Made by a program: the position numbers and the translations under genes
Origin: Treponema sp.
GTDB lineage: Bacteria; Spirochaetota; Spirochaetia; Treponematales; Breznakiellaceae
DNA: 64,000 nucleotides
Direction of reading: 5' to 3'
Assembly: GCA_009780855.1 (NCBI GenBank)
Contig: WQZG01000009.1
Coordinates: forward strand, 4,270-68,269
Part shown: positions 7,967 to 44,228 of the stretch, piece after piece
Layout of the letters: every line of letters begins with the position of its first letter
Numbering within the stretch: position 1 is the stretch's first letter
Notes under the pieces: generated by a model
Databases searched by the model: none
The model's input: only the letters and a program-made list of their open reading frames with translations
What the model was told of the DNA's origin: nothing

Positions 7967-8026
7967 AAGAAGCCACCTCTCTAACCACAGGTTAGTTTAC
8001 TAAAGGTTAGTTTACCAAAGGTAAAT

Positions 8027-8986: not shown

Positions 8987-9063
8987 AAGTTCTCTCCAAG
9001 ATTACAATCATTATAGATTAATATTATTGTACTGTCAAATAAAACTTTTATCAAATAATAATA

Positions 9064-10080: not shown

Positions 10081-10086
10081 GTTTTT

Positions 10087-10896: not shown

Positions 10897-10897
10897 G

Positions 10898-11332
10898 TTA
10901 TTTTTTAACCTCTCTCTGGCTTTTCCTTTGCGGAGATTCCGGGGACAACTGCATCATTTCAATCCTGTTGCCGTCCGGATCGGCGATAAAACATTGATGG
11001 TTAAGGTCGCGGCCAACCCGCGGTCCGCCTACGATTTCAATTCCTTTTTCTTTAAAGTAAGCCAGTGTTTCTTCCATGTTATCCACTTCGAAGCACATAT
11101 GGCCCGCGGTAATTGCCTTGGCATCGGGTTTTTCCTGCTGGGCCGGACCCATTTGTATAAGTTCGACAAAGTTGCCGTCGGGCAGCATCAGGTAGGTAAC
11201 CATCAGCTTACCTTCTTCATTGTGGATCTGGAACGCTAATTTTAACCCCAGCTTATCGCAGTAAAATTCAATAGACTTATCAAGGTTTTTGACTGCCAGA
11301 TTAATATGGCCGAATCTTTTTACTATACCCAT
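10898..11332 (-). CDS. VOC (glyoxalase/bleomycin-resistance/dioxygenase) family protein
   Basis: 'FGHINLAVKNLDKSIEFY', 'GHMCFEVDN', 'DPDGNRIEMMQ'. Confidence 0.8.
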   Translation of the reverse strand: MGIVKRFGHINLAVKNLDKSIEFYCDKLGLKLAFQIHNEEGKLMVTYLMLPDGNFVELIQMGPAQQEKPDAKAITAGHMCFEVDNMEETLAYFKEKGIEIVGGPRVGRDLNHQCFIADPDGNRIEMMQLSPESPQRKSQREVKK

Positions 11333-11343
11333 ACTTTATGCTC

Positions 11344-12939
11344 CTAGTTCTTGCTCATGTAATTGTCAAAAGCCTTCTGGTTCATGGCAATCGCATCTTC
11401 AATACCGTAACTCTTGAGCTGGGCGATATAAGCGTCAAACCTGCTCAGCGGTTCGGCTCCGGTAATGAACTTGAGGGTCATCTCGTCCACATAGGTATTT
11501 ACATCGGTCATTATTTTGCCGGCTCTTGTGACGTCATCAGCTGCGAGGGAATAATTGGGCAGTGTAAAATCGCTGTCGACATCAGGATCCTGGGCAAATT
11601 GCTGTTTGATCGCGAATACATCCGGGAACAAAATGGTGTTGGGATTGCATTCGATTCCGGTCCGGGTAACTTTTGGCCCATGGAAAATTTTGAGAATATA
11701 ATTTACGGCTTCAGGCGGATATTCGGGATTGTTAAGCGCGAAATCGTTAAGCTGCGGTTTCCCGTTCACCATGTTGTAAGTAACGCCTTCCACGCCAAAA
11801 TCATAAACAATGCTGCCTTCTGTTGTGTAACCGTAATTGAGGAATCTGACCGCTTCTGTCTTGTATTTGGTATTGTTGAAAATGGCGACTTTTCCTTCAG
11901 CCTTGACCGGGTATACTTCCCAGTCATATACATGCAGCTTGTCTCCCATATTTATGCGCGGATACAAAGTAGGCATTGTGCCGATTTTGAGGTCCTTTGC
12001 CCAAATAAGGAAGTTATCGATTCCGCCGTTAATTGCCAAAGTATCGCCCTGCTGGAACATTGACTGGCGCTGGGGATTCTTGAGTGACGGGAAATCATTG
12101 TTGATATAGCCAAGCTTATACCAATCGGCAAACTGCTGGAGGTAAGCGCGGTATCCGGCTTCGTAGGGGCCGAATTTTATCTTGCCGTTATCTTTATAAA
12201 AATTGGGAAATACATTGTAGGCGCCGATAAAATATTTTTCACGTCCGTTCTCAACCGGAATAAGGCCGCCCTTCCCGGTCTTGTCCTTATACGCCTTGAA
12301 GATCGCGGTATAGTCTGCGATGGTAACCGGCAGATTATTAAAACCAAGATCTTTTATAAGATCGTCCCTAACCATTATTCTCATCAGCGCAGGATCGGAG
12401 ACAGGCTTTATCTGGTAGAAGGCCGGCAGCAGGTTTTCCGGAGTTGTAACATCACGCCATATTTTGGGATCAGATTTAATCATTTTATAATAATCGGGCG
12501 CATATTGCTGAACATAGGGAGTAAGCTCAAGGAATACACCATCCCTGACGCCGGCAGCTTCACCGCCCCTGTACCTTTCCGGCCCCTCAATAAGATCCGG
12601 AAGATCCTGGGAAGCAATCATCATATTGAACGCTTCCGCTTCCTGACCGGCTACAGGGTGAATAAACGACAGTTTTATACCTGTTTTTTTCTGCAATTCC
12701 TGGAAAGCCAAATTTTCATCGTAGCTGCGGATGTATTTGGACGCGACCGGATTAAGCCCAAGGAAATACTTTAGTGTTACTGAACCGTCGGTCACAATCG
12801 GATAACCGGAGGCTGTTACAGACGCTGCCGAAGGGGCGGCGGACGCTGAGTTCCCGCTTGCCCAGGCCGAAACGGCGCAAATCCCGATAAGCAGGATCAG
12901 GATAAACGCTTTTGAAACTTTACCTGTGAATCTGGACAT
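11344..12939 (-). CDS. ABC transporter extracellular solute-binding protein (paralogue A)
   Basis: N-terminal signal peptide 'LILLIGICAVSAWASG'. LplA-like size. Tandem with a paralogue and two permeases. Confidence 0.85.
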   Translation of the reverse strand: MSRFTGKVSKAFILILLIGICAVSAWASGNSASAAPSAASVTASGYPIVTDGSVTLKYFLGLNPVASKYIRSYDENLAFQELQKKTGIKLSFIHPVAGQEAEAFNMMIASQDLPDLIEGPERYRGGEAAGVRDGVFLELTPYVQQYAPDYYKMIKSDPKIWRDVTTPENLLPAFYQIKPVSDPALMRIMVRDDLIKDLGFNNLPVTIADYTAIFKAYKDKTGKGGLIPVENGREKYFIGAYNVFPNFYKDNGKIKFGPYEAGYRAYLQQFADWYKLGYINNDFPSLKNPQRQSMFQQGDTLAINGGIDNFLIWAKDLKIGTMPTLYPRINMGDKLHVYDWEVYPVKAEGKVAIFNNTKYKTEAVRFLNYGYTTEGSIVYDFGVEGVTYNMVNGKPQLNDFALNNPEYPPEAVNYILKIFHGPKVTRTGIECNPNTILFPDVFAIKQQFAQDPDVDSDFTLPNYSLAADDVTRAGKIMTDVNTYVDEMTLKFITGAEPLSRFDAYIAQLKSYGIEDAIAMNQKAFDNYMSKN

Positions 12940-27892: not shown

Positions 27893-27960
27893 CGTTAAAA
27901 GCTAACTTTATTTTAAATCCTGCAAGAATTTTTCAAAAAATAACATAAAGGAAATTGAGA

Positions 27961-29874
27961 ATGAAAAAATTAGCGTTTCTTATAATCCCGTTAACAGCGT
28001 TATTTTTCTTCGGATGTCCCAATCCCAATAGTTCTACCGATCAAACCAGTCTTAAACTGGGCGAAACATCTTTGGTGTTTACCGAAATAGGCGGCTCAAA
28101 ACTGGTAGCCGTTTCCGGTGATTCAAACTGGACAGCCTCCTCAAATCAGGCCTGGTGCACTGTATCGCCTGACCATGGATCCGGCAGCGGCGCAATAAAC
28201 ATTACAGCAGATATAAACAACACTATTGTACAGCGAACCGCAAAAGTTACCATTAAAACAACAGATAACAAGTTAAGCAGTGAGATCATCATTACCCAAG
28301 CGGCCGGCCAGCCTGCAGGACCGGTCAGCGACGGTCACGGGAACAGCATCGACGCCAATCCAGCGCTGCTGGATTTTTTGAATATCGGGGGGAGTAAAAC
28401 CATACAGGTTAGTTCAACAGTTGACTGGCAAATCGTATCCGATCAGGGCTGGTGCAGTGTTTCAGCCTCCTCCGGAAACGGTAATGTCCAAGTGACAGTA
28501 ACTGTCAGCGCCAATACAGGAACATCGAGCCGAATAGCAAGGCTGAGCATAATCAATAGCACTTATGTTCTGACAAAGACTGTAACAGTAACACAACTTG
28601 GAATAGAGCCTTCGATTGTCATTTTGCCGCCAACTACAAGAAACATTGACGACCAAACACAAACCATTTCTGTCAATGTGTCGGCAAACGTGGACTTTGA
28701 CGTGACGCCAAATGTAAACTGGATCACTGTAACACAGGTAACAGCCGCAGCCGTAACCCTGCAGGCGCAGGCGAATCCGTCAACCATAAGCCGCACAGGA
28801 ACAGTAACGCTCAAACAGAAAAGCGGCTCCGCCATGGCAGTACTGACGGTAGTCCAAGAAGGCAAGCCGCCGGCTGTATATTATGCATCATCTACAGGCA
28901 ATGACTTAAACGATGGAAAATCGTGGAACAATGCTGTTAAAGATATTAATTTAGCTATTTACTTTGCCGCTCCAGGCGATTATGTATGGGTGGAAGAAGG
29001 TGCTTATTCGGAAAATGTAACGATGAAAGATGGTGTGAATGTGTATGGAGGATTCAACCGCTCAGACATCAATATTTCCAATCGGGGTACCAGGCGAAGC
29101 GTGCTTACAGGAGGCGTTTTTACAAGCGCCAATAACTTCAGCATCCCAACTATTTTAGACGGGTTCACCATTTTTAATGATAACCTCAATACACGGCAAA
29201 CGCTTAATAAAAACAGTATCATTAATAATTGCGAACTAGAAGCAACTATTGATGGCTTACCAATTAGTTGGTCATTACTAACAATTTCTGGCGGAATCAT
29301 TTCCGATTCATCAATAGTTATTAAGGGTAAATATTCTTTGGATGGTACTACCGCTATATATACTACATCTGGCGGCATGATACTCAACAGCAATATATCA
29401 AATTACGTGACGAATTATCCAGGCTATAACTACCCTGTATGCAGTGTTACTATATTTTTAAACGGCGGCCGGGTGGAGGGATGCATAATATCGGGATGTA
29501 CAAGCAATTCTATCGTAAAGTACAGCAGCGGCGGTAATAACATTGTTAATTGTACATTTAATAATCTTCAGGGCACATGGAGTACCGGGAGTAATATTTT
29601 TTTGAATGGCAGCGGCTCTCTGAATTTTGTCAATAACATCGTTTTGCCTCATGGACATATAAATACAGTGACCGGACTTTATGAAGCCAATAATATGCAA
29701 GGGCTGGCAAATGATAATGTATATCTCCTGAATGCTGACTGGTCGCCCATGCCGTTATCTGGGGCTGTAAATAAAGGCGACAATTCATTTGTTACCATTG
29801 ATAAAGATATACTTGGCAATCCCCGTATCCAGAACGGCAGGGTAGATATCGGTGCGATTGAGTCGTCATATTAA
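27961..29874 (+). CDS. Lipoprotein with three BACON domains and a C-terminal right-handed beta-helix-like domain
   Basis: Lipobox 'FFFGC'. Three ~80-aa repeats of the pattern 'GGSK..V.VS....W...S.Q.WC.VS...G.G......V..N.....R.A...I'. C-terminal 'GNPRIQNGRVDIGAIES', typical of beta-helix/choice-of-anchor-type domains. Confidence 0.75.
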   Translation: MKKLAFLIIPLTALFFFGCPNPNSSTDQTSLKLGETSLVFTEIGGSKLVAVSGDSNWTASSNQAWCTVSPDHGSGSGAINITADINNTIVQRTAKVTIKTTDNKLSSEIIITQAAGQPAGPVSDGHGNSIDANPALLDFLNIGGSKTIQVSSTVDWQIVSDQGWCSVSASSGNGNVQVTVTVSANTGTSSRIARLSIINSTYVLTKTVTVTQLGIEPSIVILPPTTRNIDDQTQTISVNVSANVDFDVTPNVNWITVTQVTAAAVTLQAQANPSTISRTGTVTLKQKSGSAMAVLTVVQEGKPPAVYYASSTGNDLNDGKSWNNAVKDINLAIYFAAPGDYVWVEEGAYSENVTMKDGVNVYGGFNRSDINISNRGTRRSVLTGGVFTSANNFSIPTILDGFTIFNDNLNTRQTLNKNSIINNCELEATIDGLPISWSLLTISGGIISDSSIVIKGKYSLDGTTAIYTTSGGMILNSNISNYVTNYPGYNYPVCSVTIFLNGGRVEGCIISGCTSNSIVKYSSGGNNIVNCTFNNLQGTWSTGSNIFLNGSGSLNFVNNIVLPHGHINTVTGLYEANNMQGLANDNVYLLNADWSPMPLSGAVNKGDNSFVTIDKDILGNPRIQNGRVDIGAIESSY

Positions 29875-29883
29875 GGGTATTGT

Positions 29884-30303
29884 ATGAAAACGCCGTTTAA
29901 AAAATTCAGTCTTTTAATATTGATAATCTTCGCATTTACCTTTGTTACCTGTCCCAATCCGAATGGCAGCGGTAATCCCGGTAATGGCGGTACCGACGGT
30001 AATAAAGGCGGCGGCGGTACCATTAAAATGCCGCCTGCGCCAACTGATGCGTGGGTTACAGGGGTTTCCGGTACTTCAATCAGGGTTACCTGGTATGTGG
30101 TTATAGGAGCGGATAAAATCAGGGTTCAATACTCAACTTCTCCAACCGGACCATTTGCTTCAGTTGAAACTACAGCGTTAACTCAAATAATAATTGATGG
30201 TCTGCAGCCCAATACCAAGTATTATGTCAGAGTTTCTGCAATAAACAGCGCCGGGGAGGGGCCGTATAGATCTGCCTATGGATCAACAAATCCCGGATTT
30301 TAG
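29884..30303 (+). CDS. Small lipoprotein with a fibronectin type III domain
   Basis: Lipobox 'FVTC', Gly-rich linker, and FN3 pattern 'PTDAWVTGVSGTSIRVTW...LQPNTKYYVRVSAINSAGEG'. Confidence 0.75.
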   Translation: MKTPFKKFSLLILIIFAFTFVTCPNPNGSGNPGNGGTDGNKGGGGTIKMPPAPTDAWVTGVSGTSIRVTWYVVIGADKIRVQYSTSPTGPFASVETTALTQIIIDGLQPNTKYYVRVSAINSAGEGPYRSAYGSTNPGF

Positions 30304-30580: not shown

Positions 30581-30775
30581 ATGCGTGAATTACGCAGCCA
30601 ATGTAAGGGCCGGCCATTACGTACCTTTTATGCTTTTGATCCTAAGCGATTCGCAATTCTGTTAATTGGTGCGGACAAAACAGGAAATGACAGGTTTTAT
30701 GAAGAAATGATCCCATTGGCAGATAAAATCTTTGAAGATTACCTAATAGAAATCCGGGAGGAGAATAATGGCTAG
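30581..30775 (+). CDS. RelE/ParE-superfamily (HigB/Gp49-like) toxin, N-terminally truncated
   Basis: 'RELRSQCKGRPLRTFYAFDPKRFAILLIGADKTGN' matches the C-terminal two-thirds of Gp49-like toxins (about 110 aa when intact). The upstream in-frame sequence is AT-rich junk closed by TGA at 30512. It overlaps the antitoxin start by 8 nt. Confidence 0.65.
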   Translation: MRELRSQCKGRPLRTFYAFDPKRFAILLIGADKTGNDRFYEEMIPLADKIFEDYLIEIREENNG

Positions 30776-31076
30776 GAAATTTTCAGAACTTGAAGAAAAA
30801 ATGAGTCCGGAATCAAGGCAATGGGTAAACCAGGAAGTCGAAAAGGCTTTGGCTGCAATGCCGCTAAGTGAATTGCGAAATGCCCGCGGCCTTTCCCAAA
30901 AGATGCTTGCAGAAGCCCTGCATATTCAGCAACCCGCAATAGCAAAGCTGGAAAAACGAACTGATATGTATATCTCCACTCTGCGAAGCCATATTAAAGC
31001 AATGGGGGGAGAACTTGAGATTATTGCCCGGTTTCCGGATGGGGACGTGAGTATATCCAATTTTTCACAGATTTAA
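30768..31076 (+). CDS. HigA-like XRE-family antitoxin
   Basis: 'LSELRNARGLSQKMLAEALHIQQPAIAKLEKRTDMYISTLRSHIKAMGGELEI'. This is the typical partner of Gp49-like toxins. Confidence 0.8.
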   Translation: MARKFSELEEKMSPESRQWVNQEVEKALAAMPLSELRNARGLSQKMLAEALHIQQPAIAKLEKRTDMYISTLRSHIKAMGGELEIIARFPDGDVSISNFSQI

Positions 31077-33367: not shown

Positions 33368-33685
33368 TTAACCGCTGATCGTATCATAGGGCCAGCTCAT
33401 GATACCGCCAAAGTTACTGACATTGGTGTAACCCATGTTAGCCAGCAATTTACAGGCTCTTGAGCTTCTGCCCCCGCTAAGACAATAAACCAGGATAACC
33501 GCGTTCTTGTCCCTGAGTTTGGATTCGGCGGCAGACTCAACTTCATCAACGGGGATATTGATTGCGCCCTTGATCCGCTTCTCCTCAAATTCATCCCTGG
33601 TCCTTACATCGACCAGTGTATAGGGCTGGCCGCTGTCCATTACCGCTTTGGCATCCTTTGCCGATATGTTTTTTGGATTTTTCAT
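33368..33685 (-). CDS. Rhodanese-domain protein (no signal peptide)
   Basis: Active-site loop 'YCLSGGRS'. The ATG at 33685 has an AGGAG RBS and overlaps the arsR-family stop (ATGA). Confidence 0.8.
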   Translation of the reverse strand: MKNPKNISAKDAKAVMDSGQPYTLVDVRTRDEFEEKRIKGAINIPVDEVESAAESKLRDKNAVILVYCLSGGRSSRACKLLANMGYTNVSNFGGIMSWPYDTISG

Positions 33686-33978
33686 GGTTTTTTCTCCTGT
33701 GATCTGCAATAATATTTTCTTAACACATTTATTGTGTTTTCCACCCGTTTGTCGGCAACCGAATAAATAATATTCTGGCCGGATTTTTTGGAATCAAGGT
33801 AATTATGCGCTTTTAATAAAGTAAGGTGCTGAGAAAGCGCGGACTGCGTAATGCCGGGAACATGTTTGGCAATTCCGGCCGGCGTCATCGGCTGCCCGAT
33901 AAGGGCGCACAGAATCAGGAGCCGGTTTTCGTTGGCAAGCACCTTGAGCATGCGGGCTATTTCTTTTACCTCATCCAT
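33682..33978 (-). CDS. ArsR/SmtB family transcriptional regulator
   Basis: 'LKVLANENRLLILCALIGQPMTPAGIAKHVPGITQSALSQHLTLLKAHNYL' wHTH. It lacks the ELCVCDL metal site. Confidence 0.85.
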   Translation of the reverse strand: MDEVKEIARMLKVLANENRLLILCALIGQPMTPAGIAKHVPGITQSALSQHLTLLKAHNYLDSKKSGQNIIYSVADKRVENTINVLRKYYCRSQEKKP

Positions 33979-34147
33979 TATCTGACTAAACCTTCCGTAT
34001 AAACCTTTAATATTAAATTTACTTACATAAACAGTTTAGTGTACATAAGTAATTTAGATATTGCTAATATACTGTATTATAAAAATAATTGCAAGGGGGG
34101 TTATTTCGGTTAGATTTTTACATGAGGCATTACAGCGGAAGAATCCT

Positions 34148-34717
34148 TCAGCCATTATTAATTTTGTTTTCCTGAACTATTTTTTCTATTCCCTTTACAA
34201 ACACATTAAAACTATGAGATTTATTTTTTGTAATATCCATATATTGGGCTATTTTTTTTGCTCCGGTTATTTGTTGGTAAGCAGGAACAAGTTTTCTTAA
34301 TTCTTGTTTTGCATTCGCTATAGAATCTGGATTACGAAAAATAGCTTTTGCCTTATAACCAGAGAGACTAATACCATAGCCTTTTTCGACAGCATCAAGA
34401 TCACCCAGATACCAGGATTCCAGTTCTGTACATACTATTCTTATGAGTGTATCAGAATGTCTGGTTTCGTATATAAGATTATGTAAATCTGTTTTTAGTT
34501 TTTTACAATCAGCAGAGTCTTTATCACAAACAATCACAAATTGTACATTTTGTTCTTTCCACCCCCGTGTTTTAATCGGGATTGATTTTTTAAGAGCAGG
34601 CTTGCCATTATGGGCAATACATTGAAATGTATAAGACTGAGGAAAGATTTGCGGAAGAATAATCGACAAAAGTTCTTTCATTGATGATTCTTCCAGAAGA
34701 AAGACGATTTTTACCAT
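34148..34717 (-). CDS. DUF4276 family protein (Toprim-like)
   Basis: 'MVKIVFLLEESSMKELL', 'FVIVCDKDSADC', 'ELESWYLGDLDA', 'KSHSFNVF' match my recollection of the DUF4276 pattern. The ATG at 34717 lies 1 nt after the ATPase stop. Confidence 0.65.
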   Translation of the reverse strand: MVKIVFLLEESSMKELLSIILPQIFPQSYTFQCIAHNGKPALKKSIPIKTRGWKEQNVQFVIVCDKDSADCKKLKTDLHNLIYETRHSDTLIRIVCTELESWYLGDLDAVEKGYGISLSGYKAKAIFRNPDSIANAKQELRKLVPAYQQITGAKKIAQYMDITKNKSHSFNVFVKGIEKIVQENKINNG

Positions 34718-34718
34718 T

Positions 34719-35888
34719 CTATAAAAGTCCTTCCTGCCATAATTCACCCAATTTATCTCCATTTTGATAAAGGGAAACAATGTTTTTATCATTTAAAGCA
34801 GCAACTATGTCTGATACACCGTTTTGTTTTTTAATTATGAACAATTCTTCCGGTTCAATGGCATTTACAAAGTTGGGTGAATGGGTAGAAATAAAAACTT
34901 GCCCTCCGGAGAATGAATATTCCCTGAATTCTTCCGCAAGAATTTCCAATAAATGCGGGTATAACTGATTCTCCGGTTCTTCTATACAGAGCAGTTTATG
35001 CGGATTTGGGTCTGCCAACATTACCAGATATGCGAACATCTTAATTGTTCCGTCAGATACAAATCTGGCAGAAAAGGGATTTTTGAACTTACCGTCCGAA
35101 AAACGCAGAAATATTTGCCCTTCTTCTGTCTGTTTTGACTCAACATTACTTATTCCCGGAATTTTTTCACGCATTTTCTGTAAAATTCCTTTAAATTTAT
35201 CCGGATGTTTATCATGAAGAAATTGCGTAACATTCGCTAAATTATCCCCGCTTCGGCTAAGCTGCTCAATATAAGAAATATCCTGAGTTTGGCGCGCGGC
35301 GTAAATATGGAAATCCGAGACAAACCAATCTTCAATAAATTTCCGAAAATCGACTACTGCAGTAAAATGTTTGATTTGTCCAAATGTTTTTATAGCCAGT
35401 ATATCCGGTGAATCCAATGTAAATTTTTCATGTTTAGTATCAAGTATATTTTTAAATTCAGCATTATCATTTGCTATTGCTTCTCCCACCCCCTGTGAAA
35501 AATCAATAATTTTTACAGTTGATACTTGTTTTTCTCTTGTTACTTCAATAATTAATTGCTCTTTAACAATGATTGGCGTGTTTTTTGTATCTGTGTTTAA
35601 TCGAAGCTCATAAGTATAAAAGGGAGAGGTATCAAATGTTTTATATTGAAAGCTTAGGCAAATATCGCCCATTGTTTCTCTTGTGTGAACTTCATCGTAT
35701 CCGCCGCGCGCCTGCAATGCGGAACGTATATTTTCTGTCAGACATTGTTTCATAAATCCAAAAACATCAAAAAAAGTCGATTTACCGGAACCATTTTCAC
35801 CCAGAAACACAGCAAGCTGACCTATATTCTTAATATCCACATTCTGCAATGTTTTGTAGTTTTCAATGTGAATGTTAATGATTTTCAT
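34719..35888 (-). CDS. AAA_21-type ABC/SMC-like ATPase
   Basis: Walker A 'GENGSGKST', signature-like 'FVSDGT', Walker B 'LLCIEEPENQLYP', H-loop 'STHSP'. Confidence 0.85.
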   Translation of the reverse strand: MKIINIHIENYKTLQNVDIKNIGQLAVFLGENGSGKSTFFDVFGFMKQCLTENIRSALQARGGYDEVHTRETMGDICLSFQYKTFDTSPFYTYELRLNTDTKNTPIIVKEQLIIEVTREKQVSTVKIIDFSQGVGEAIANDNAEFKNILDTKHEKFTLDSPDILAIKTFGQIKHFTAVVDFRKFIEDWFVSDFHIYAARQTQDISYIEQLSRSGDNLANVTQFLHDKHPDKFKGILQKMREKIPGISNVESKQTEEGQIFLRFSDGKFKNPFSARFVSDGTIKMFAYLVMLADPNPHKLLCIEEPENQLYPHLLEILAEEFREYSFSGGQVFISTHSPNFVNAIEPEELFIIKKQNGVSDIVAALNDKNIVSLYQNGDKLGELWQEGLL

Positions 35889-36066
35889 GTTTTACCTGCC
35901 TTTTTAATACTTTACAGTGAGAATAGTTTAACTTTTAAATAAAATCAAACATATCATAAGCCGTGTCTGCAATACAATGCAGCGCTCCTAAATAAAAAAA
36001 ATTTCTATGTAAACTTTTCTCCATGCTCTTCTATAATTGCAATTTTTCATCTATAATGGTTCGATT

Positions 36067-37788
36067 ATGGCGGCCTCCGGGTCTTCAATTCCGCAAAATC
36101 CTCTTATTATCCAAAGCGACAGAACTTTGCTTCTTGATGTACACGCGCCCAGGGCGGAGGAAGCCCGCGCCGCGATTTTGCCTTTTGCGGAACTGGAAAA
36201 ATCCCCGGAGCATATCCATACCTACCGCATTACTTCCCTTTCGCTGTGGAACGCGGCCGGCGCCGGGTTTTCTCCGGCAGATGTGGCAAATACCCTTAAC
36301 GAGTTTACCCGTTATCCGGTTCCGTCCGGCATTATCGAGGGATTCGGCGATACCATGTCCAGGTACGGGAAGATTCGCATGGCCTCAGGAGGTTCAGATT
36401 CAGGCGAACTTTCACTGGTCTGCGATGACCAGGCGATCGTTACAGAAATTGCCGCGGCAAAAAGCCTGGCAAAACTGCTTAACAAAACATCAAGCGGTTT
36501 TTGCCTTAAGCTGACCGACAGGGGAAGCGTCAAACGGGAGCTGATTAGGCTGGGCTGGCCGGTGCACGATGAAGCCCCTCTTGTCGAAGGGGAGCCGATG
36601 GAGATTACGCTTAAGCAGCCGGATACTCCGGGAAATCCCCTTGTGCTGCGCGATTACCAGATCGAAGCAGCCCGCGCTGTTACAGGATCGGGGGGGCCGG
36701 GAACAGGTTACGGGGTGGTTGTCCTGCCGTGCGGGGCGGGCAAGACTGTAGTCGGAATTATCCTGATGTCCATGCTAAAAACCAATACATTGATCCTCAC
36801 AGCGAATGTGGCGGCGGTTCACCAGTGGATGCAGGAACTTCTGGACAAGACCTTTCTTAAACCGGAAGATATAGCCGAATATTCCGGCGATACAAAATCT
36901 ACGGCGCCGGTCACGGTCGCGACTTACCAGATTATTACATGGCGGCCTGACAAGGACGGGGAATTCCCGCACTTTAAACTGTTCAGGGAAAGGCCCTGGG
37001 GATTAATCATCTATGATGAAGTCCACCTGCTGCCGGCTCCGGTATTCAGGGTGACCGCTGAATTGCAGGCGGTCAGGCGGCTGGGCCTTACAGCGACACT
37101 GGTCAGGGAAGACGGCGCCGAAGATGCGGTATTCAGCCTTGTGGGGCCGAAACGCTACGATGTGCCGTGGAAGGATCTGGAGGCAAAGGGCTGGATTGCG
37201 GAAGCTTTGTGTACGGAAATACGTCTTGATTTGCCGGATAATCTCAAGATTCCGTACGCGTCGGCTTCAAAACGGGAGAAGTACAGGACAGCCAGCGAAA
37301 ACCCGCTCAAGGAAACTGTTGTCCGCGAATTAATCGAGAACCACAGCGAAGATCAAATTCTGGTAATCGGACAGTATATCAGCCAGCTTGAGTCCCTGGC
37401 TAAAATGTTAAAGACTCCGATTATTACCGGCAGCACGCCGAACAGGGAAAGGGAGACAATTTACAGCGCCTTCCGCAAGGGCGAGATTCCGGTCATTGTC
37501 GTCAGCAGGGTGGCGAACTTCGCAATCGATCTGCCGGACGCTTCAATGGCGATTCAGGTGTCAGGCACCTTTGGTTCCCGCCAGGAGGAGGCGCAGAGAC
37601 TGGGAAGGGTACTCAGGCCCAAAGGCATGGGACACAATTCGTGGTTTTATACGCTGGTGTCGCGGGGCACTGTCGAAGAGGACTTCGCGGCAAAGCGCAG
37701 GCAGTTTCTCGCGGAGCAGGGATACAAGTACACAATCCAGCACTGGACCGCAGATGAATTAAAAATGCCCGGAGGCGCACAGCCGTGA
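36067..37788 (+). CDS. XPB/ERCC3-type SF2 DNA helicase
   Basis: Walker A 'CGAGKT', 'YDEVHLL', and the XPB-specific RED motif in 'TATLVREDG'. The N-terminal domain 'PLIIQSDRTLLLDV...IHTYRITSLSLWNA' is typical of bacterial/archaeal XPB. The ATG at 36067 is preferred over the TTG at 36037. Confidence 0.9.
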   Translation: MAASGSSIPQNPLIIQSDRTLLLDVHAPRAEEARAAILPFAELEKSPEHIHTYRITSLSLWNAAGAGFSPADVANTLNEFTRYPVPSGIIEGFGDTMSRYGKIRMASGGSDSGELSLVCDDQAIVTEIAAAKSLAKLLNKTSSGFCLKLTDRGSVKRELIRLGWPVHDEAPLVEGEPMEITLKQPDTPGNPLVLRDYQIEAARAVTGSGGPGTGYGVVVLPCGAGKTVVGIILMSMLKTNTLILTANVAAVHQWMQELLDKTFLKPEDIAEYSGDTKSTAPVTVATYQIITWRPDKDGEFPHFKLFRERPWGLIIYDEVHLLPAPVFRVTAELQAVRRLGLTATLVREDGAEDAVFSLVGPKRYDVPWKDLEAKGWIAEALCTEIRLDLPDNLKIPYASASKREKYRTASENPLKETVVRELIENHSEDQILVIGQYISQLESLAKMLKTPIITGSTPNRERETIYSAFRKGEIPVIVVSRVANFAIDLPDASMAIQVSGTFGSRQEEAQRLGRVLRPKGMGHNSWFYTLVSRGTVEEDFAAKRRQFLAEQGYKYTIQHWTADELKMPGGAQP

Positions 37789-39974
37789 CAGGTTCTGCAT
37801 ACCGTTTCCGTTCAACAGAAGAATGGAAATCCGCGATCATGAACCTTCCCCTTTTTTTTGAGCTGATGAGGAGTGTCTTTGGCAACATAAAAACTCCCTA
37901 CAACAAGCAGCGCCTGTTGGAAGATCTGTTTGTGTTCCTGTCCAGGGATGATATTCAGAAAACAATTTTGTCCATGATTGATGAAGACGATCACAGGGTA
38001 ATTGCGGCGGCGGCCCTCCTCGGTGATCCGACTCCCACGGAACTGGAAGAATTTTTCCAGGGTGAAAAGAACAGCGCCGTTCTGCGCGGACATCTGCTTA
38101 ACATGGAAGAAAGACTGTTATTGTTCAGGTTCAATGATGATACCCGGCGCGTGCGCAGGCTTGCCCTCAATCCGGTTCTTGTATCCATACTTGGACCCCT
38201 TGCCGCTGATACGGGAATATTGTTCCCGTCACAGGCAATAGCACAGTCTGACGCGGCCGGGCAGGCAGCAGTATACAACGACACCCGCACAGGAGAATTT
38301 TCTGCCGGAGACGACAGGGCCCTTGGCGCTTTTTTTGCGTTTGTATCCGCGGAAGAAGAATTTTTTAAAACAGACGGTATACGCAAAAAAGTTTATGACC
38401 AGGGCCAAAAACTTTTCCCTGGCCTGGACCTGGGAACGGCCGCTGAAGTGCTTATCAACCTGGGGCTTTTTTATACCGAAGGAGAAAAGTTCCTCCCTGT
38501 TAACAGAAAAATCCGGAGATTCGGGGAACTGGAACCTGGCGGGAGACGGGAGTACTGGGCTGCCGGCCTCTATTTTAATCTGGAAGAAAAAAAGGGAGAA
38601 AATAAAAACGGCGCTTACGGCATCTTTGGGCTGTCAAACCGGATCAGCAGCCTGGCTTCCCTGATTCATCAGTTCTGCTGCTGCCTGGCCGGCGACAGGA
38701 AATATTTAAAAGCAACCCTGTTAAAAATTTTAAAAATTTTGGAACAGCAGAATATAAACGGCTCACGGGAGTTTACCGGAAGGATCAACGCGCGGGTTTT
38801 TCTTGACGCGCTGATCACGGCGGGGATACTAAAAAATTGCGCTGCGGAAAATTATTGCAGCTATATACCGGTGACCGCCGCGGAAACCAGGGGCCCGCAA
38901 ATTGCGATGGATTCGCCGTTTACTTTTATTTTGTATCCGGGAATACGGTTCAAGGATATTTTAAAATTTTGTGTCTTTGCGGATTTAAGGGAAGAAGAAC
39001 CGTTTGGGTTTGAACTGACCAAAACGTCGGCGGTGCGCGGTTTCGACTTCGGCCTGGATTCCAAAAGCATGATCGCGATCCTCAATGACCTGTCAGGGAA
39101 CCGTATTGACGAAGGTTTGATATGGACGCTTAAGGACTGGGAGTCCAGATACGCTTCGGTTTTGCTGCATGACGGATTGGTACTTTATCTTTCCCAGGAT
39201 AAACAATACCTGGCGGACGCCGAACCAATTGTTTCGCTGATCCAGAATAAAATCGCGCCCGGCCTGTATGTGTTAAAAGGAGAAAGCGGTCCGGCGGCGG
39301 CCGCGCTGCAGAGGGCGGGCGTGGATATTGTCGCAAGGCCCCGCCGGCAGACAGAATCCGGATACGGATCAACATTCCCGTCTCCGTCAGGATCAGCAAA
39401 CGATACGCAGGTTTTTGCGATTGGAAATCCCGAATCTTCAAGTGCATCGGCTCCCGCGCCGGAAGACAGTCCGGCGGATGGTAATCCGGCTGCAGTCAGT
39501 TTACCTCCGGGAAATTCCAAAGATGAGACCAAAAATCATTTTTTAAAATTACTTGATAAAATGAAACTGACCGGACCGGAAAGGGAAGAACTGGCGGCCC
39601 GCATAGAACGCCGCGTTATAATCACGGAAACCCAACTGGACAGGACCGCGATAAAGCATCAGAAACTTGAAGCCAGGGGACTGGATTACGCCGGAAAAAT
39701 TTCCATTGTCAAACAGGCATTAATAGACGGTTCTTCGCTTGAGGTTTCCCGTACAGACATGGGGACGGAATCCGGCGTCACAGCCGGGGTTCCTTCGGCC
39801 CTGGAAAAAAAAGAAGGCGAAAGCGTGCTTGTTCTAAAACCATTCAGCGGGCAAGAATCCGGCTGGGCCGGTGAAACAGAGGCCGGCGGCGATCTGCAGG
39901 AAAATCTGATCCGTATCCCGTTGGGAAAGATCAGTTTATTGCGCATGATCAAAAGATCGATTTTTAATTATTAG
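37785..39974 (+). CDS. XPB-associated large protein (helicase-associated, p52/Tfb2-like by synteny only)
   Basis: The GTG start overlaps the XPB TGA (GTGA at 37785-37788). As I recall, actinobacterial XPB genes have a similar ~750-aa neighbour. I recognise no catalytic motif. There is a Pro/Ser-rich linker around 39330-39520. Confidence 0.55.
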   Translation: MTGSAYRFRSTEEWKSAIMNLPLFFELMRSVFGNIKTPYNKQRLLEDLFVFLSRDDIQKTILSMIDEDDHRVIAAAALLGDPTPTELEEFFQGEKNSAVLRGHLLNMEERLLLFRFNDDTRRVRRLALNPVLVSILGPLAADTGILFPSQAIAQSDAAGQAAVYNDTRTGEFSAGDDRALGAFFAFVSAEEEFFKTDGIRKKVYDQGQKLFPGLDLGTAAEVLINLGLFYTEGEKFLPVNRKIRRFGELEPGGRREYWAAGLYFNLEEKKGENKNGAYGIFGLSNRISSLASLIHQFCCCLAGDRKYLKATLLKILKILEQQNINGSREFTGRINARVFLDALITAGILKNCAAENYCSYIPVTAAETRGPQIAMDSPFTFILYPGIRFKDILKFCVFADLREEEPFGFELTKTSAVRGFDFGLDSKSMIAILNDLSGNRIDEGLIWTLKDWESRYASVLLHDGLVLYLSQDKQYLADAEPIVSLIQNKIAPGLYVLKGESGPAAAALQRAGVDIVARPRRQTESGYGSTFPSPSGSANDTQVFAIGNPESSSASAPAPEDSPADGNPAAVSLPPGNSKDETKNHFLKLLDKMKLTGPEREELAARIERRVIITETQLDRTAIKHQKLEARGLDYAGKISIVKQALIDGSSLEVSRTDMGTESGVTAGVPSALEKKEGESVLVLKPFSGQESGWAGETEAGGDLQENLIRIPLGKISLLRMIKRSIFNY

Positions 39975-40020
39975 TTTTAATTATCAGGCGCGGACAGCGC
40001 CGGTTATACAGGAGTTACAT

Positions 40021-40800
40021 ATGCCGTTACTGCCATTTTCGGTACAGCAAACAGAAACAAGCCAGGAGAAACTGGCTGTGCTTATTGACGCGGACAACAC
40101 ACAGCCTGCGATTATAGAAGGTCTTTTAAACGAAGTAGCCAAATACGGGATCGCGAGCATCAAACGAATTTACGGAGACTGGACAAGCACAAACCTGCGA
40201 TCCTGGAAAGACAGGCTGCTTGAATACGCGATACAGCCCATTCAGCAGTTCTCGTACACAACGGGAAAAAACGCGACAGACTCGGCCATGATCATTGACG
40301 CCATGGATCTGCTTTACAGCGGCAAACTGGACGGCTTCTGCATTGTCTCAAGCGACTCCGATTTTACCCGCCTGGCCGCCCGCCTGCGCGAAAGCGGCCA
40401 CATGGTATACGGCTTTGGCGAAAAGAAAACCCCGCGCGCCTTTGTCTCTGTCTGTGACAAGTTCATCTACACCGAAATACTTAGGGACGCCCAGGTCGAG
40501 GAAGAAGCCGACGAAGACAAAAAGACAGTCGCAAAACGCAAAGAATTCAAAGTCGACCAGAAATTACTGAGACTGCTCCACGACGCCGTTGACGACCAGG
40601 CCGACGAATCAGGCTGGGCCAATCTTTCAAAAGTAGGCCAGGGAATCAACAAAAGGTCAAGCGAGTTTGACCCGCGCAACTACGGCTTCCGCAAACTCGG
40701 TGATCTCTTCAGGGCAATTTCCCAGTTTGAAACCGAGGAACGCCCGCAGGAAAACGGCATGGGCCGGCAGGTCAACATACGCTGGAAGAAGAAGCGGTAG
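40021..40800 (+). CDS. NYN (LabA-like PIN-fold nuclease) + OST-HTH/LOTUS domain protein
   Basis: 'KLAVLIDADN', 'KRIYGDW', 'GKNATDSAMIIDAMD', 'FCIVSSDSDFTRLAARLRESG'. The C-terminal 'GWANLSKVGQGINKRSSEFDPRNYGFRKLGDLF' is LOTUS-like. AGGAG RBS. Confidence 0.85.
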   Translation: MPLLPFSVQQTETSQEKLAVLIDADNTQPAIIEGLLNEVAKYGIASIKRIYGDWTSTNLRSWKDRLLEYAIQPIQQFSYTTGKNATDSAMIIDAMDLLYSGKLDGFCIVSSDSDFTRLAARLRESGHMVYGFGEKKTPRAFVSVCDKFIYTEILRDAQVEEEADEDKKTVAKRKEFKVDQKLLRLLHDAVDDQADESGWANLSKVGQGINKRSSEFDPRNYGFRKLGDLFRAISQFETEERPQENGMGRQVNIRWKKKR

Positions 40801-40929
40801 GGGGATTATTATTGGCAAAGTGTTGATGTTCTTGCCAATTACAAAAGCCGTTTTGAGATTAGAAGTAAACTACCTACTATAGAACGCACAATTGCACAAA
40901 AGGGGGTTGTTCTTTATGACTGCGCTTGA
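40801..40929 (+). pseudogene. C-terminal fragment of a minimal nucleotidyltransferase (MNT) gene
   Basis: My hand translation 'GDLLLAKVDVLANYKSRFEIRSKLPTIERTIAQKGVVLYDCA*' resembles the MNT C-terminus ('VDLV....l.p.lr..I..eg..ly'). There is no start codon, and the frame begins at the NYN gene's stop codon. Confidence 0.45.
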
Positions 40930-40996
40930 TTTGGCCAATGAATGGATTCATTATGCAAAAAGCGATTTGGCAACTGCTCAACACATTTGTTTATAG
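40916..40996 (+). pseudogene. N-terminal fragment of a HEPN-domain gene
   Basis: 'MTALDLANEWIHYAKSDLATAQHICL*' is only 26 aa, with a HEPN-like N-terminal helix. It overlaps the MNT fragment by 14 nt, as in MNT-HEPN pairs, and ends where the LacI gene begins. Confidence 0.5.
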
Positions 40997-42088
40997 ATTC
41001 ATATTAGATTCCCATAGAAGACTGTGATTCGTTATATAACTGACATTTTCTTTAAGTATAAGACTATGAGATATCATTATTTCTCTCCGGGATATTGGAT
41101 TTTTTTGGTCGAGTATTTTTTCCAGTATCCGGACTGCGGTATATCCCTGTAATATTGGATCCTGGTAAACCACTGCGCCCAGTTTCCCTTTTTCAAGACA
41201 TTCCACTGCTTCATCATCAATATCGTGCTGAATAATAACCGATTTTTGACATTCATATTTTTTAAGAATATTATGCAATTGGGTACAATGTGAAGAAAGC
41301 ATATATATTACATCAGGTTTCTTTTTTACTTCTTTAAGAAAAGATGCAAATTTTTGTTCGATTTTAGGATCATTAAAATATGTATCTATGTAATTTATGG
41401 AACGGTAAATTAACGGATATTGCTCTTCGATAACCGATAAAAATCCCTTTAACCGTTGTACATCCGGATTTGATAAATTTATTTGATTTTTACCCGGTGA
41501 TTTATGGACAATCAGGACTTCACGTTCTGACTTTGATTCCAGAATTTTACCGGTAAAATTAGCTGCCAGACGGCCGCCTTCATTTGTATTTGTTCCGACA
41601 TAACCTAATCCCCGTTTTAGGGGATCATCAATATTAAAAAAGATAAAAGGAATGTTGGCTTTTTCAACCAGTTTTATAATTTTGTCCATATCGAAAAGAT
41701 TCAGATACACAAATGCCGCGGCATCCAACCCGTTTTTTATTTCATTTTTTAACAAATTACAGTATTTTTCCGTATCATATGAGGGTATCTTAATAAAATG
41801 GACTTCATAGTTGAGGGATTTTAAATAATCAGCAGCTATTAATGCGCCTTTTTCAATATCCTGCCAAAAAAAATCAGGTTGTATTGCCGTAAACAGGGCA
41901 ATTTTTTGAATTTTTTTTCTTACAAGAATTTGAGAAGCTCTATGCGGAATATAATTGCTTTTTTCAGCATAATCCAGGATACGTTTTCTTAATGCTGCCG
42001 AGACATAACCTGAATTATTGAATACACGGCTTACCGTTATGAAAGAAATACCCAAATCGTTGGCTATTTCCTTCTGGGTTATGGACAT
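40991..42088 (-). CDS. LacI family transcriptional regulator
   Basis: 'ITQKEIANDLGISFITVSRVFNNSGYVSAALRKRILDYAEKSNYIP' HTH plus a periplasmic-binding-like sugar domain. Confidence 0.9.
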   Translation of the reverse strand: MSITQKEIANDLGISFITVSRVFNNSGYVSAALRKRILDYAEKSNYIPHRASQILVRKKIQKIALFTAIQPDFFWQDIEKGALIAADYLKSLNYEVHFIKIPSYDTEKYCNLLKNEIKNGLDAAAFVYLNLFDMDKIIKLVEKANIPFIFFNIDDPLKRGLGYVGTNTNEGGRLAANFTGKILESKSEREVLIVHKSPGKNQINLSNPDVQRLKGFLSVIEEQYPLIYRSINYIDTYFNDPKIEQKFASFLKEVKKKPDVIYMLSSHCTQLHNILKKYECQKSVIIQHDIDDEAVECLEKGKLGAVVYQDPILQGYTAVRILEKILDQKNPISRREIMISHSLILKENVSYITNHSLLWESNMNL

Positions 42089-42157
42089 AATTAAATTATA
42101 TAAAAATTAAACAAATGTATCAATGCGAAAATTTCACTTGACAAATATATATTGGAT

Positions 42158-42175
42158 ATGATATACGTATATCAT
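42158..42175. promoter_or_regulatory. Candidate LacI-family operator (18-bp perfect palindrome with central CG)
   Basis: 'ATGATATACGTATATCAT' lies in the LacI/GH31 divergent region. A TTGACA sits at 42138-42143, 14 nt upstream. Confidence 0.55.
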
Positions 42176-42209
42176 ACGGGATTGAAAATAAAATAATTGA
42201 GGTTTGAAT

Positions 42210-44228
42210 ATGCCTTTATTTACAAGAGACGGTAACCGCTTAATATATCAATTTGATGCAGAAAAGCTTTGGGCAGAGCCGTGGGGAGTAAATAGTCTTC
42301 GTATTCGTTCGGCAAAAAGTGCAAAAATGCCCGGCGCCGCAGAAGATAATGAAGATTGGGCTTTGCTTTCACCAAAACCGTATGTTTCAGAAATTACTAT
42401 CAATGATGATATTGCAAAAATTAAGAATGGCAAAATCGAACTTCAGATAACCCGGTATGGAGTTATAAAAGTTTTTAATGATAAAGGAAAACTCCTGCTT
42501 GCCGAGTATATGAGGATCCGCAAAGATATAACTGATTCTCATACATACAGCAGCCTTAAAATAGAAGCCAGGGAATTTAAACCAAATATTGGCGGTGATT
42601 TTGAACTAACAATGCGTTTTGAATCTGTCTCGCAGGATGAAAAAATATACGGTATGGGCCAATATCAGCATCCTTACTTAAATTTAAAAGGAATGGAACT
42701 GGAATTGGCTCAAAGAAACACCCAGGCCAGTGTACCTTTTGCTGTTTCTAACCTTGGATATGGGTTCCTTTGGAATAATCCGGCTGTAGGAAGGGTATGT
42801 TTTGGCCGCAATATTACAACCTGGACAGCTAAATCCACAAAAAAACTTGATTATTGGGTTACTGCCGGAGATAATCCTGCAGAAATAATAAAAACATATG
42901 CCAGTGTTACCGGAACTGTTCCCATGATGCCCGATTATGCAATGGGTTTTTGGCAATGTAAATTACGTTATCAAACGCAGGAAGAGCTGCTTAATATAGC
43001 AAAAGAATATAAAAAACGTGAATTGCCAATTTCTGTAATAGTTGTGGATTTTTTTCATTGGCCTTTGCAGGGCGAATGGAAATTTGATCCGGTTTATTGG
43101 CCAAATCCGGACGCCATGGTCCGGGAACTTAAAGATATGGGTATTGAACTCATGGTTTCTGTTTGGCCCACAGTTGATTATAAAAGTGAAAATTGGAATG
43201 AAATGATTGAAAATGGATATCTTATACGCACAGAACGGGGTTTTCGCATTAGCCTGGGAGTGCAGGGCAATACAGTTTATTTCGATACGACAAATCCCGA
43301 TGCCAGAGCCTATTTGTGGGAAAAAATAAAAAAGAATTATTACAATAAAGGAATTAAAATTTTTTGGCTTGATGAAGCCGAACCGGAATATACAGTCTAT
43401 GATTTTGATAATTACCGTTATTATTTGGGACCGAATATCCAAATCGGCAATATTTATCCTGTTATGTATGCAAAAACCCTTTTTGACGGAATGAAAGCAG
43501 AAGGTCAGGAAAAAATTATTAATCTGGTCCGCTGCGCATGGGCAGGAAGTCAGCATTACGGTGCATTGGTTTGGAGCGGCGATGTATATTCATCATTTGA
43601 ATCGCTTCGATGTCAATTACCTGCCGGATTAAATATGGGTCTTGCCGGAATTCCGTGGTGGACCACAGATATTGGAGGTTTTATCGGAGGAAATATAAAT
43701 GATCCTCATTTTCATGAATTATTTATCCGCTGGTTTGAATGGAGTTGTTTTTGCCCGGTGATGAGGCTTCATGGTGATCGTGCGCCAAAAAAACCTCCGA
43801 TTGGAATGACAGGAGGAGCTCTTTGTTCATCAGGCGCGGATAATGAAGTATGGTCATTTTCTCCTGAAGTTTATGAAATCTGCAAAAAATATCTATTTTT
43901 AAGGGAAAAACTTAAACCGTATATAACAATTCAAATGAAAGAAGCTCATGAAAACGGAACCCCGGTAATGCGCCCATTATTTTATGATTTTCCTGATGAT
44001 TCTGCTGCGTGGGAAACAGAAGACGAGTATATGTTTGGTCCGGATTATCTTGTTGCCCCTGTATTATATGAAGGACAAACAGAAAGAGAAGTATATCTGC
44101 CTGTCGATCGGTCTATCGAACAAACATGGACAAATATGTGGACAAATGAAACTTTTAATGGAGGGAAACGGATTATTGCGGCCGCTCCCCTGGAAACCAT
44201 ACCTGTCTTTATCAGGACAAAAATATAA
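42210..44228 (+). CDS. Glycoside hydrolase family 31 (alpha-xylosidase/alpha-glucosidase-like)
   Basis: 'GFWQCKLRYQTQEEL', 'VIVVDFFHW', 'KIFWLDEAEPE' (nucleophile region), 'WSGD', 'WWTTDIGGF', 'MRLHGD'. ATG at 42210 with a GAGG RBS. Confidence 0.85.
   Translation: MPLFTRDGNRLIYQFDAEKLWAEPWGVNSLRIRSAKSAKMPGAAEDNEDWALLSPKPYVSEITINDDIAKIKNGKIELQITRYGVIKVFNDKGKLLLAEYMRIRKDITDSHTYSSLKIEAREFKPNIGGDFELTMRFESVSQDEKIYGMGQYQHPYLNLKGMELELAQRNTQASVPFAVSNLGYGFLWNNPAVGRVCFGRNITTWTAKSTKKLDYWVTAGDNPAEIIKTYASVTGTVPMMPDYAMGFWQCKLRYQTQEELLNIAKEYKKRELPISVIVVDFFHWPLQGEWKFDPVYWPNPDAMVRELKDMGIELMVSVWPTVDYKSENWNEMIENGYLIRTERGFRISLGVQGNTVYFDTTNPDARAYLWEKIKKNYYNKGIKIFWLDEAEPEYTVYDFDNYRYYLGPNIQIGNIYPVMYAKTLFDGMKAEGQEKIINLVRCAWAGSQHYGALVWSGDVYSSFESLRCQLPAGLNMGLAGIPWWTTDIGGFIGGNINDPHFHELFIRWFEWSCFCPVMRLHGDRAPKKPPIGMTGGALCSSGADNEVWSFSPEVYEICKKYLFLREKLKPYITIQMKEAHENGTPVMRPLFYDFPDDSAAWETEDEYMFGPDYLVAPVLYEGQTEREVYLPVDRSIEQTWTNMWTNETFNGGKRIIAAAPLETIPVFIRTKI

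Follow-up and report, generated by a model that had tools for sequence, protein, structure and literature searches.

The 64,000-nucleotide stretch of DNA analysed here (the window) comes from contig WQZG01000009.1 (positions 4,270 to 68,269 of the forward strand) of the Treponema sp. assembly GCA_009780855.1, and it carries on its minus strand two adjacent genes (34148-35888) coding for an ABC-type ATPase and a small protein of the DUF4276 family. As judged from its sequence, this locus is an intact copy of the PADLOC candidate system HEC-01, an ordinary member of that system and not a new kind. The working model that we consider probable is that of a horizontally acquired, self-contained two-gene HEC-01 module, in which an ATPase-regulated Toprim nuclease would act against phages.

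HEC-01 (Hma-embedded candidate 01; PADLOC-DB v2) was defined by Payne et al. as an ABC ATPase combined with a TOPRIM protein, it was discovered embedded within Hma loci, and the predicted structure of its TOPRIM component has the metal site of the B. pseudomallei OLD nuclease 6NK8 (10.1101/2024.01.29.577857). The window pair shows the features that define the system: one protein matches the ATPase model, the other matches the model of the TOPRIM/DUF4276 partner, and their genes are adjacent and co-directional. The ATPase is best described by PADLOC model PDLC04144 (E 3.6e-141, 468.8 bits; residues 1-388 on model positions 1-388 of 395), followed by PDLC04182 (E 1e-125), and the small protein is matched by PDLC04143 (E 5.6e-61; residues 1-183 on model positions 1-186 of 190) and PDLC04202 (E 6.5e-41); with the Pfam matches given below, these values lie far beyond chance. 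The public annotation of the identical proteins, which belong to a Treponema sp. metagenome-assembled genome (MAG), is "AAA family ATPase" and "DUF4276 family protein". Related to the nomenclature, the names of the components seem to be swapped in PADLOC: the best model of the ATPase is called 'HEC-01B' and that of the DUF4276 protein 'HEC-01A', whereas the paper uses HEC-01A for the ATPase and HEC-01B for the TOPRIM protein. An earlier reading of this DNA, made from the sequence only, had presented the pairing as uncharacterised; it is already included in PADLOC as HEC-01, and it has been tested twice with conflicting results (10.1101/2024.01.29.577857, PMC12881386). In the more favourable of these reports, E. 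coli B carrying a HEC-01 cluster from a cold seep was protected from one or more of the phages T7, T5 and T4 (Nat Commun 2026, PMC12881386).

The first gene of the pair (34719..35888, minus strand) appears in the list of open reading frames (ORFs) with 389 amino acids (aa) and finishes with the stop codon TAG at 34719-34721. Its product belongs to the Pfam families AAA_21 (E 2.1e-30) and AAA_15 (E 5e-19); it is also matched by PADLOC mad3, by the NCBIfam model MAD3 (E 1.4e-35, 123.3 bits, below the cut-off of 420) and, over part of the protein, by the PADLOC model of GajA (E 1.8e-15). The conservation of residues in both proteins was evaluated on 77 sequences, the window copy plus 76 genome loci. 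The Walker A motif or P-loop GENGSGKST (35775..35801, minus strand; residues 30-38) keeps G30, G33, G35 and K36 in 77/77 sequences, and the Q-loop residue Q171 is invariant in the alignment of ATPase relatives. The signature-like motif VSDGT (35046..35060, minus strand; residues 277-281, within the longer string FVSDGT of residues 276-281) lies about 20 residues N-terminal of Walker B; its five residues (V277, S278, D279, G280, T281) do not vary in alignment A4, and S278 and G280 are kept in the whole set (77/77). Walker B and the D-loop are contained in LLCIEEPE (34971..34994, minus strand; residues 299-306), where E303 and E304 are present in 77/77 sequences and E306 in 76/77; the Walker B stretch quoted in the earlier reading, LLCIEEPENQLYP, corresponds to residues 299-311. 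The H-loop STHSP (34875..34889, minus strand; residues 334-338) has its histidine, H336, in 77/77.

The model of this protein obtained with AlphaFold2 (pLDDT 83.3) shows an ABC head fold, and its nearest solved folds (E about 1e-12, TMq about 0.45-0.54) are the ATPase of retron type I-A (9n69), Septu PtuA (8eea/8sux), Rad50/SMC heads and GajA (8x5i). The sequence search of solved structures gave no close relative and only matches at the level of the P-loop, such as that with 6p74 (E 0.0011), whose likeness is confined to the P-loop region; the match with the AriA chains 8ux9 and 8v45 is weak and covers only the Walker B and H-loop region. Given Walker A, Q-loop, signature, Walker B, H-loop and head fold, the protein is an ABC ATPase of the Rad50/SMC/OLD clade, and a compact one, with a Rad50/SMC-like head and without a long coiled coil.

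The second gene (34148..34717, minus strand; start ATG at 34717..34715, stop at 34148) encodes the small protein of 189 aa. DUF4276 is the only Pfam family that matches it (E 1.6e-13, 51.8 bits, cut-off 30.2), the matches in PADLOC are restricted to HEC-01 models, and no NCBIfam model was matched; the domain calls made earlier, an AAA_21-type ABC ATPase and DUF4276, were therefore correct according to the Pfam profile search. The paper on Menshen describes DUF4276 as a new member of Toprim and Mad4 of MADS as a homologue (PMC12065111), and the paper on PARIS has DUF4276 in its domain tree and counts MADS3-4 and AbiL among the systems composed of ABC ATPase and TOPRIM (PMC11464382). The small protein was modelled with AlphaFold2 from a 38-sequence alignment (pLDDT 91.3, pTM 0.87), and the model consists of four beta-alpha units and then a helical C-terminal part (strands E and helices H in the order E2-8, H11-24, E29-35, H39-52, E58-65, H71-83, E91-95), in keeping with the three-layer alpha/beta fold of Toprim domains and its parallel sheet of four strands. 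The Foldseek search of this model against the PDB (E <= 0.001) gave three matches only, all of them with OLD nucleases and, within these, with the C-terminal region made up of the Toprim and helical parts: 6nk8_B in first place (E 9.7e-5, TMq 0.58) followed by 6njw and 6njv, with probability 1.00 and TMq 0.50-0.58. By sequence, the DUF4276 profile matched none of the solved structures (best E 0.14).

The residues expected in a Toprim core are found at the corresponding places of the model. The glutamates E9 and E10 (34688..34693, minus strand), which are part of LLEESS (residues 7-12), are located just after beta-1 (E2-8) and are present in 77/77 and 76/77 sequences, respectively. The DxD motif D65-K66-D67 (34517..34525, minus strand), part of CDKDSADC (residues 64-71), is at the end of beta-3 (E58-65), with D65 in 77/77 and D67 in 76/77. 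A further acidic motif, ELESW (34412..34426, minus strand; residues 98-102), follows beta-4 (E91-95) and has E100 and W102 in 77/77 and E98 in 72/77; its acidic residues are a probable additional metal ligand. The small protein is thus, according to the model, an OLD-type Toprim fold with a Glu after beta-1 and a DxD at beta-3, and a putative metal-dependent nuclease. The earlier proposal of a Toprim-like protein came through the profile and fold searches, with the DUF4276 match and the OLD C-terminal regions as top folds, and the conserved N-terminal Glu and the DxD on which it leaned are indeed conserved; the split OLD-like logic of ATPase plus Toprim stands because OLD regions are the best fold match and these residues are kept. 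As a separate observation, His36, Cys71 and Cys96 of the DUF4276 protein are also invariant (77/77), alongside the Toprim acidic residues.

Both genes are co-directional and only 1 nt apart: the junction (34715..34721, minus strand) is made of TAG (34721-34719), A (34718) and ATG (34717-34715). The sequence-only reading was exact to the base in describing two minus-strand genes of 389 and 189 aa joined as TAG, one nt and ATG, and all the motifs that it quoted from the two proteins are where it placed them. In the mechanical ORF list the second ORF was stretched to 34792, which gives 214 aa; the true start of the DUF4276 gene is 34717, because every homologue (37/37 in the alignment) opens with M-x-K-[LIF]-VFLLEE. 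The purine-rich sequence GGAAGGA is found about 11 nt upstream of this ATG, and together with the spacing of the junction it suggests translational coupling of the two genes. In relatives the ATPase and DUF4276 genes likewise abut or share 4 nt, as in locus L002 (8826-10004 and 10001-10558).

In a collection with one genome per species, at least 532 hits code for relatives of the DUF4276 protein (44-64% identity). Among their sources are spirochaetes, Methylococcales, cyanobacteria, Bacillota, Planctomycetota, Acidobacteriota, Chloroflexota, Desulfobacterota and methanogenic archaea, and this phyletic spread is extremely patchy. Wherever the fetched sequence extends 1.2 kb or more upstream of the DUF4276 gene (about 76 loci, contig ends excepted), an ATPase homologue is encoded immediately upstream on the same strand; one further copy, L012, has a decayed ATPase. 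The matrices of pairwise identity of the two proteins are correlated with r = 0.80 (maximum of 999 permutations, 0.13). As the ATPase gene is always upstream and the matrices are correlated, it follows that both genes travel and evolve as a unit. The DUF4276 profile recovered 2019 of 1.84 billion cluster representatives (50% identity) at E <= 0.001, 353 of them at E <= 1e-30, and no natural fusion of ATPase and DUF4276 was found among the best 150 of these 2019 representatives, all of which are stand-alone proteins of 127-235 aa. Just upstream of the sole relative found on a viral contig (L088:8800-10540; IMGVR_UViG_3300025711_000083), the DNA weakly resembles the ATPase gene; this contig may derive from a prophage or be host DNA that was misbinned.

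The base composition of the window marks the pair as a foreign element. The guanine plus cytosine (GC) fraction is 0.30-0.39 over about 33,950-36,000 and 0.47-0.58 on both sides (about 0.33 in the islet against about 0.50, and about 0.55 in the neighbouring XPB cluster), so the GC profile bore out the AT-rich patch pointed out earlier. This patch is nearly co-extensive with the two genes, and the islet (33980..36030) contains the gene pair only. Horizontal transfer probably inserted it between an ArsR gene with two rhodanese-like ORFs and the XPB cluster, and its acquisition or mobility is argued from the foreign GC and from the scattering of the relatives over distant phyla. The flanks of the islet contain no direct or inverted repeats beyond chance, no tRNA and no Rfam element, and there is no integrase among the neighbours. 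A metagenome scan with the XPB protein, aimed at an empty insertion site, provided relatives of XPB at 71-88% identity, but their contigs stop at or just upstream of XPB and none of them displays such a site. A second AT-rich patch is found in the window at 40750-43500 (GC 0.31-0.39); it covers a minus-strand gene for a regulator of the LacI family (40991-42088) and the first part of a gene for a GH31 glycoside hydrolase (42204-44228), and it may be another acquired segment.

Regarding the neighbours of the pair, the gene of the ArsR-family regulator (33682-33978) has downstream two ORFs that are rhodanese-like by eye from their translations only; on the same side there are a radical-SAM enzyme and a 201-aa ORF that, also by eye from its translation, is a SpoU/TrmH-type methyltransferase and has no PADLOC match. 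On the other side, at 148 bp and divergent from the pair, the gene of an XPB/ERCC3-type helicase starts a triad (36037-40800) completed by a 729-aa helicase-associated protein, with a weak Helicase_C_3 match, and a protein with NYN and OST-HTH/LOTUS domains. This triad is kept on the metagenome contig L089 (about 77% DNA identity; 90% amino-acid identity in the NYN protein), and because of this conservation and its host-like GC it looks like part of the lineage core and not of an island. In PADLOC the 729-aa and NYN-LOTUS proteins match nothing, including the NYN candidate HEC-09, and only weak domain-level matches were obtained for XPB (the PbeA helicase core) and ArsR (the helix-turn-helix, HTH, of Csa3). 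Among the window neighbours, neither a mad methyltransferase nor any other mad gene was identified.

The earlier reading had also placed the pair in a defence-island-like context, flanked by decayed toxin-antitoxin genes. A remnant of that kind exists at 30581-31076: a Gp49/HigB-like ORF of 64 aa, which spans only positions 40-89 of the 90 in the profile and is thus N-terminally truncated, runs into the beginning of an HTH_37 antitoxin-like gene (102 aa, intact), and both together look like a decayed toxin-antitoxin pair. It is, however, the only one, and it lies about 3 kb from the HEC-01 genes. The island context itself was rejected for the window copy, as the PADLOC scans of the neighbours gave no convincing match beyond the domain-level ones; nor is it supported in most relatives, which are mostly found beside housekeeping genes. 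Further away (27955-30303), the window codes for a 639-aa protein containing three BACON domains and next for one of 139 aa, by eye from its translation small, secreted and provided with a fibronectin-type-III-like repeat; they look like a surface or glycan-binding pair, unrelated to HEC-01.

With respect to the function, a complex made of a sensing or regulating ABC ATPase and an executing Toprim protein is argued from the intact motifs, the tight coupling of the genes and their co-evolution. In this scheme the ATPase would oligomerise, bind the Toprim protein and hold it inactive, until the ATPase, presumably through its variable inserts, senses a cue of phage origin, for instance a protein or a nucleic acid of aberrant structure. 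The binding or hydrolysis of ATP would then activate or free the Toprim subunit, which could cleave nucleic acid with the help of a divalent metal and of E9/E10, D65-x-D67 and E98/E100. It might cleave DNA, as OLD and GajA do, or tRNA, as PARIS AriB does; as a result phage replication would be halted, perhaps with the loss of the infected cell. PARIS provides the analogy of an ATPase that sequesters the nuclease until a trigger frees it, and OLD and Gabija that of a nuclease activity modulated by ATP; with both analogies, infection would be expected to set off an ATP-dependent, metal-requiring cleavage of DNA or tRNA. It is by analogy with these systems that we infer complex formation, trigger, substrate and anti-phage activity as most likely for the window copy.

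Several observations weigh against this anti-phage model. To our knowledge, nuclease activity, a complex or a trigger has been reported for no HEC-01 system. The promoter and terminator scan of the locus gave a count of sites not above that of shuffled sequence, and the comparison of eight window neighbours with PADLOC gave no convincing defence match. Carriage by viruses is very rare, with one distant relative (39% identity) in the 2.9 million viral contigs of IMG/VR. Besides, a census over 33 non-redundant loci of relatives, with two flanking genes counted per side, returned mainly housekeeping genes (aminoacyl-tRNA synthetases, RF2 and transporters; class II aminoacyl-tRNA synthetase five times, RF2 four times and IleRS three times). 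As for the experiments, the HEC-01 representative of Payne et al. protected E. coli against none of the phages tried, and most of the candidates of that study are, according to its authors, not enriched near defence systems (10.1101/2024.01.29.577857). The report of protection by the cold-seep cluster gives for HEC-01 neither fold-reduction nor mutant controls and names AAA_21 as the sole domain (PMC12881386).

The same census provided fewer defence-related neighbours: genes of type I restriction-modification (R-M) systems at two loci, a second mad3-like ATPase at three, mad5-like genes at two and Uma2/PDC-S03 at three. At L006:4881-11188 (GCA_964520785.1) the pair lies between genes for an N6_N4 methyltransferase (639 aa) and a ResIII/RE_endonuc protein (873 aa), which makes it an insert within a type III R-M system. 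This embedding, together with the type I R-M loci and the mad3- or mad5-like neighbours, speaks for a defence association of the family outside the window. At L001:6909-13091 (Breznakiellaceae bacterium SP9, JBTZSX010000017.1) two tandem pairs, of 382 and 234 aa and then of 387 and 200 aa, are directly followed by an 831-aa protein with T5orf172/MUG113 and ResIII domains, and this may be a composite defence locus.

In five loci of Methylococcales (L009, L018, L024, L030 and L038, at about 7,700-12,300) the pair is found between same-strand genes of about 349 and 499 aa; RF-1/PCRF and class II tRNA-synthetase domains occur in the census at counts that match these loci, and there the pair appears to have its place between prfB and lysS and to have been kept in several genera. 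In cyanobacterial relatives it adjoins ileS. The translation genes were considered as a functional clue and rejected, each group (Methylococcales and cyanobacteria) having one shared insertion site; since the loci stem from related genomes that share these sites, the excess of translation genes does not represent independent events.

Among the readings that compete with an ATPase-regulated anti-phage nuclease, the first keeps the module and changes the way in which it works. The subfamily could act unlike OLD and Gabija, either by a PARIS-like release of a Toprim RNase against tRNA or the translation machinery or through a redox or metal switch formed by His36 with Cys71/Cys96, or it could be mainly a solitary addiction-type islet in housekeeping operons. 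We regard this possibility as unlikely.

A somewhat fainter candidate is a purely selfish addiction module, in which a Toprim toxin restrained by the ATPase would persist by post-segregational killing or by mobility, without a dedicated anti-phage role. The solitary position of the relatives amid housekeeping genes (prfB/lysS in Methylococcales, ileS in cyanobacteria) and the foreign GC of the islet agree with it, and so does the label of AAA_21 in Pfam, 'putative AbiEii toxin, Type IV TA system'. It could also account for a HEC-01 that was unprotective in the assay of Payne et al., whose candidates are mostly not enriched near defence systems (10.1101/2024.01.29.577857), but not for the one experimental report of phage protection by HEC-01 (PMC12881386). 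Moreover, the pair recurs inside R-M and MADS-like loci, and no plasmid or mobile-element genes are adjacent to it in the window. It should also be considered that abortive-infection defence is often formally toxin-antitoxin-like, so both readings overlap.

It is more doubtful still that the pair depends on partners, as an accessory to some larger system linked to methylation (MADS, Hma or R-M), which would make the window copy an orphan, inactive alone. HEC-01 was indeed found embedded in Hma loci (10.1101/2024.01.29.577857), Mad3 and Mad4 are homologous parts of the eight-gene MADS, and locus L006 lies within a type III R-M system and some other relatives beside mad3- or mad5-like genes. The ATPase does match NCBIfam MAD3 and PADLOC mad3, but with 123 bits it stays far from the MAD3 cut-off of 420, and its DUF4276 partner has no NCBIfam match and only HEC-01 models in PADLOC; the window moreover has no mad methyltransferase or other mad gene close to the pair. 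In most of the 33 loci of relatives the pair stands alone, and its catalytic residues are still invariant, as under purifying selection, which argues for an autonomous function under selection. Lastly, a housekeeping role in DNA repair or replication, as a Rad50-like ATPase with a Toprim nuclease working with the adjacent XPB cluster, is close to refuted, since in spite of the divergent XPB/ERCC3-type gene only 148 bp away and the Rad50/SMC-like head of the ATPase, the pair has a GC of about 0.33 against about 0.55 in that cluster, its neighbours change in every lineage whereas the XPB/729-aa/NYN triad is conserved (L089), and its phyletic distribution is extremely patchy.

The window locus by itself matters little, as PADLOC would call the pair automatically. 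On the other hand the HEC-01 family, widespread in bacteria and archaea and with conflicting phage assays, is a fair target for mechanistic work, and two results are useful for such studies: this subfamily is mostly solitary among housekeeping genes, and its two genes are strongly co-evolving (r = 0.80).

Compared with the HEC-01 of Payne et al., the window copy has the same order of genes, an ABC ATPase and then a small TOPRIM/DUF4276 protein, with full-length matches to the models, and the fold search recovers the same similarity to 6NK8 (B. pseudomallei OLD) that is described in the paper; it differs in being a solitary AT-rich islet of a Treponema MAG, outside Hma or any other defence locus. 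Mad3-Mad4 of MADS is also made of an AAA_15/21 ABC ATPase and a DUF4276 Toprim protein, and the window ATPase partially matches the MAD3 models. Nevertheless, its score falls far short of the equivalog cut-off (123 bits instead of 420), no Mad4-type match was obtained for the small protein and MADS comprises eight genes, including a methyltransferase, instead of two, so the pair does not belong to MADS.

PARIS is likewise split into two genes for an ATPase and a Toprim protein, and it offers a logic of sensor, release and nuclease. The window pair is nonetheless not a PARIS system, as the AriB effector is DUF4435 and the window effector DUF4276. There are further differences: the ATPase has 389 aa compared with 464 aa in the solved AriA chains, and relatives of HEC-01 are very rare on viral contigs. 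The OLD nucleases of class 1 (P2 Old) and class 2 (GajA) share with the pair the combination of ABC ATPase and Toprim with catalytic Glu and DxD, OLD C-terminal regions are the best folds for the small protein, and GajA is among those of the ATPase. However, OLD proteins fuse ATPase and Toprim, and in the window these are two ORFs; likeness in sequence stays within the P-loop region (6p74). Nor does the pair correspond to Gabija, as the genes beside it are those of ArsR and XPB and not a UvrD-like GajB partner. The HEC-01 module is a relative of OLD, Gabija, PARIS and the Mad3-Mad4 part of MADS.

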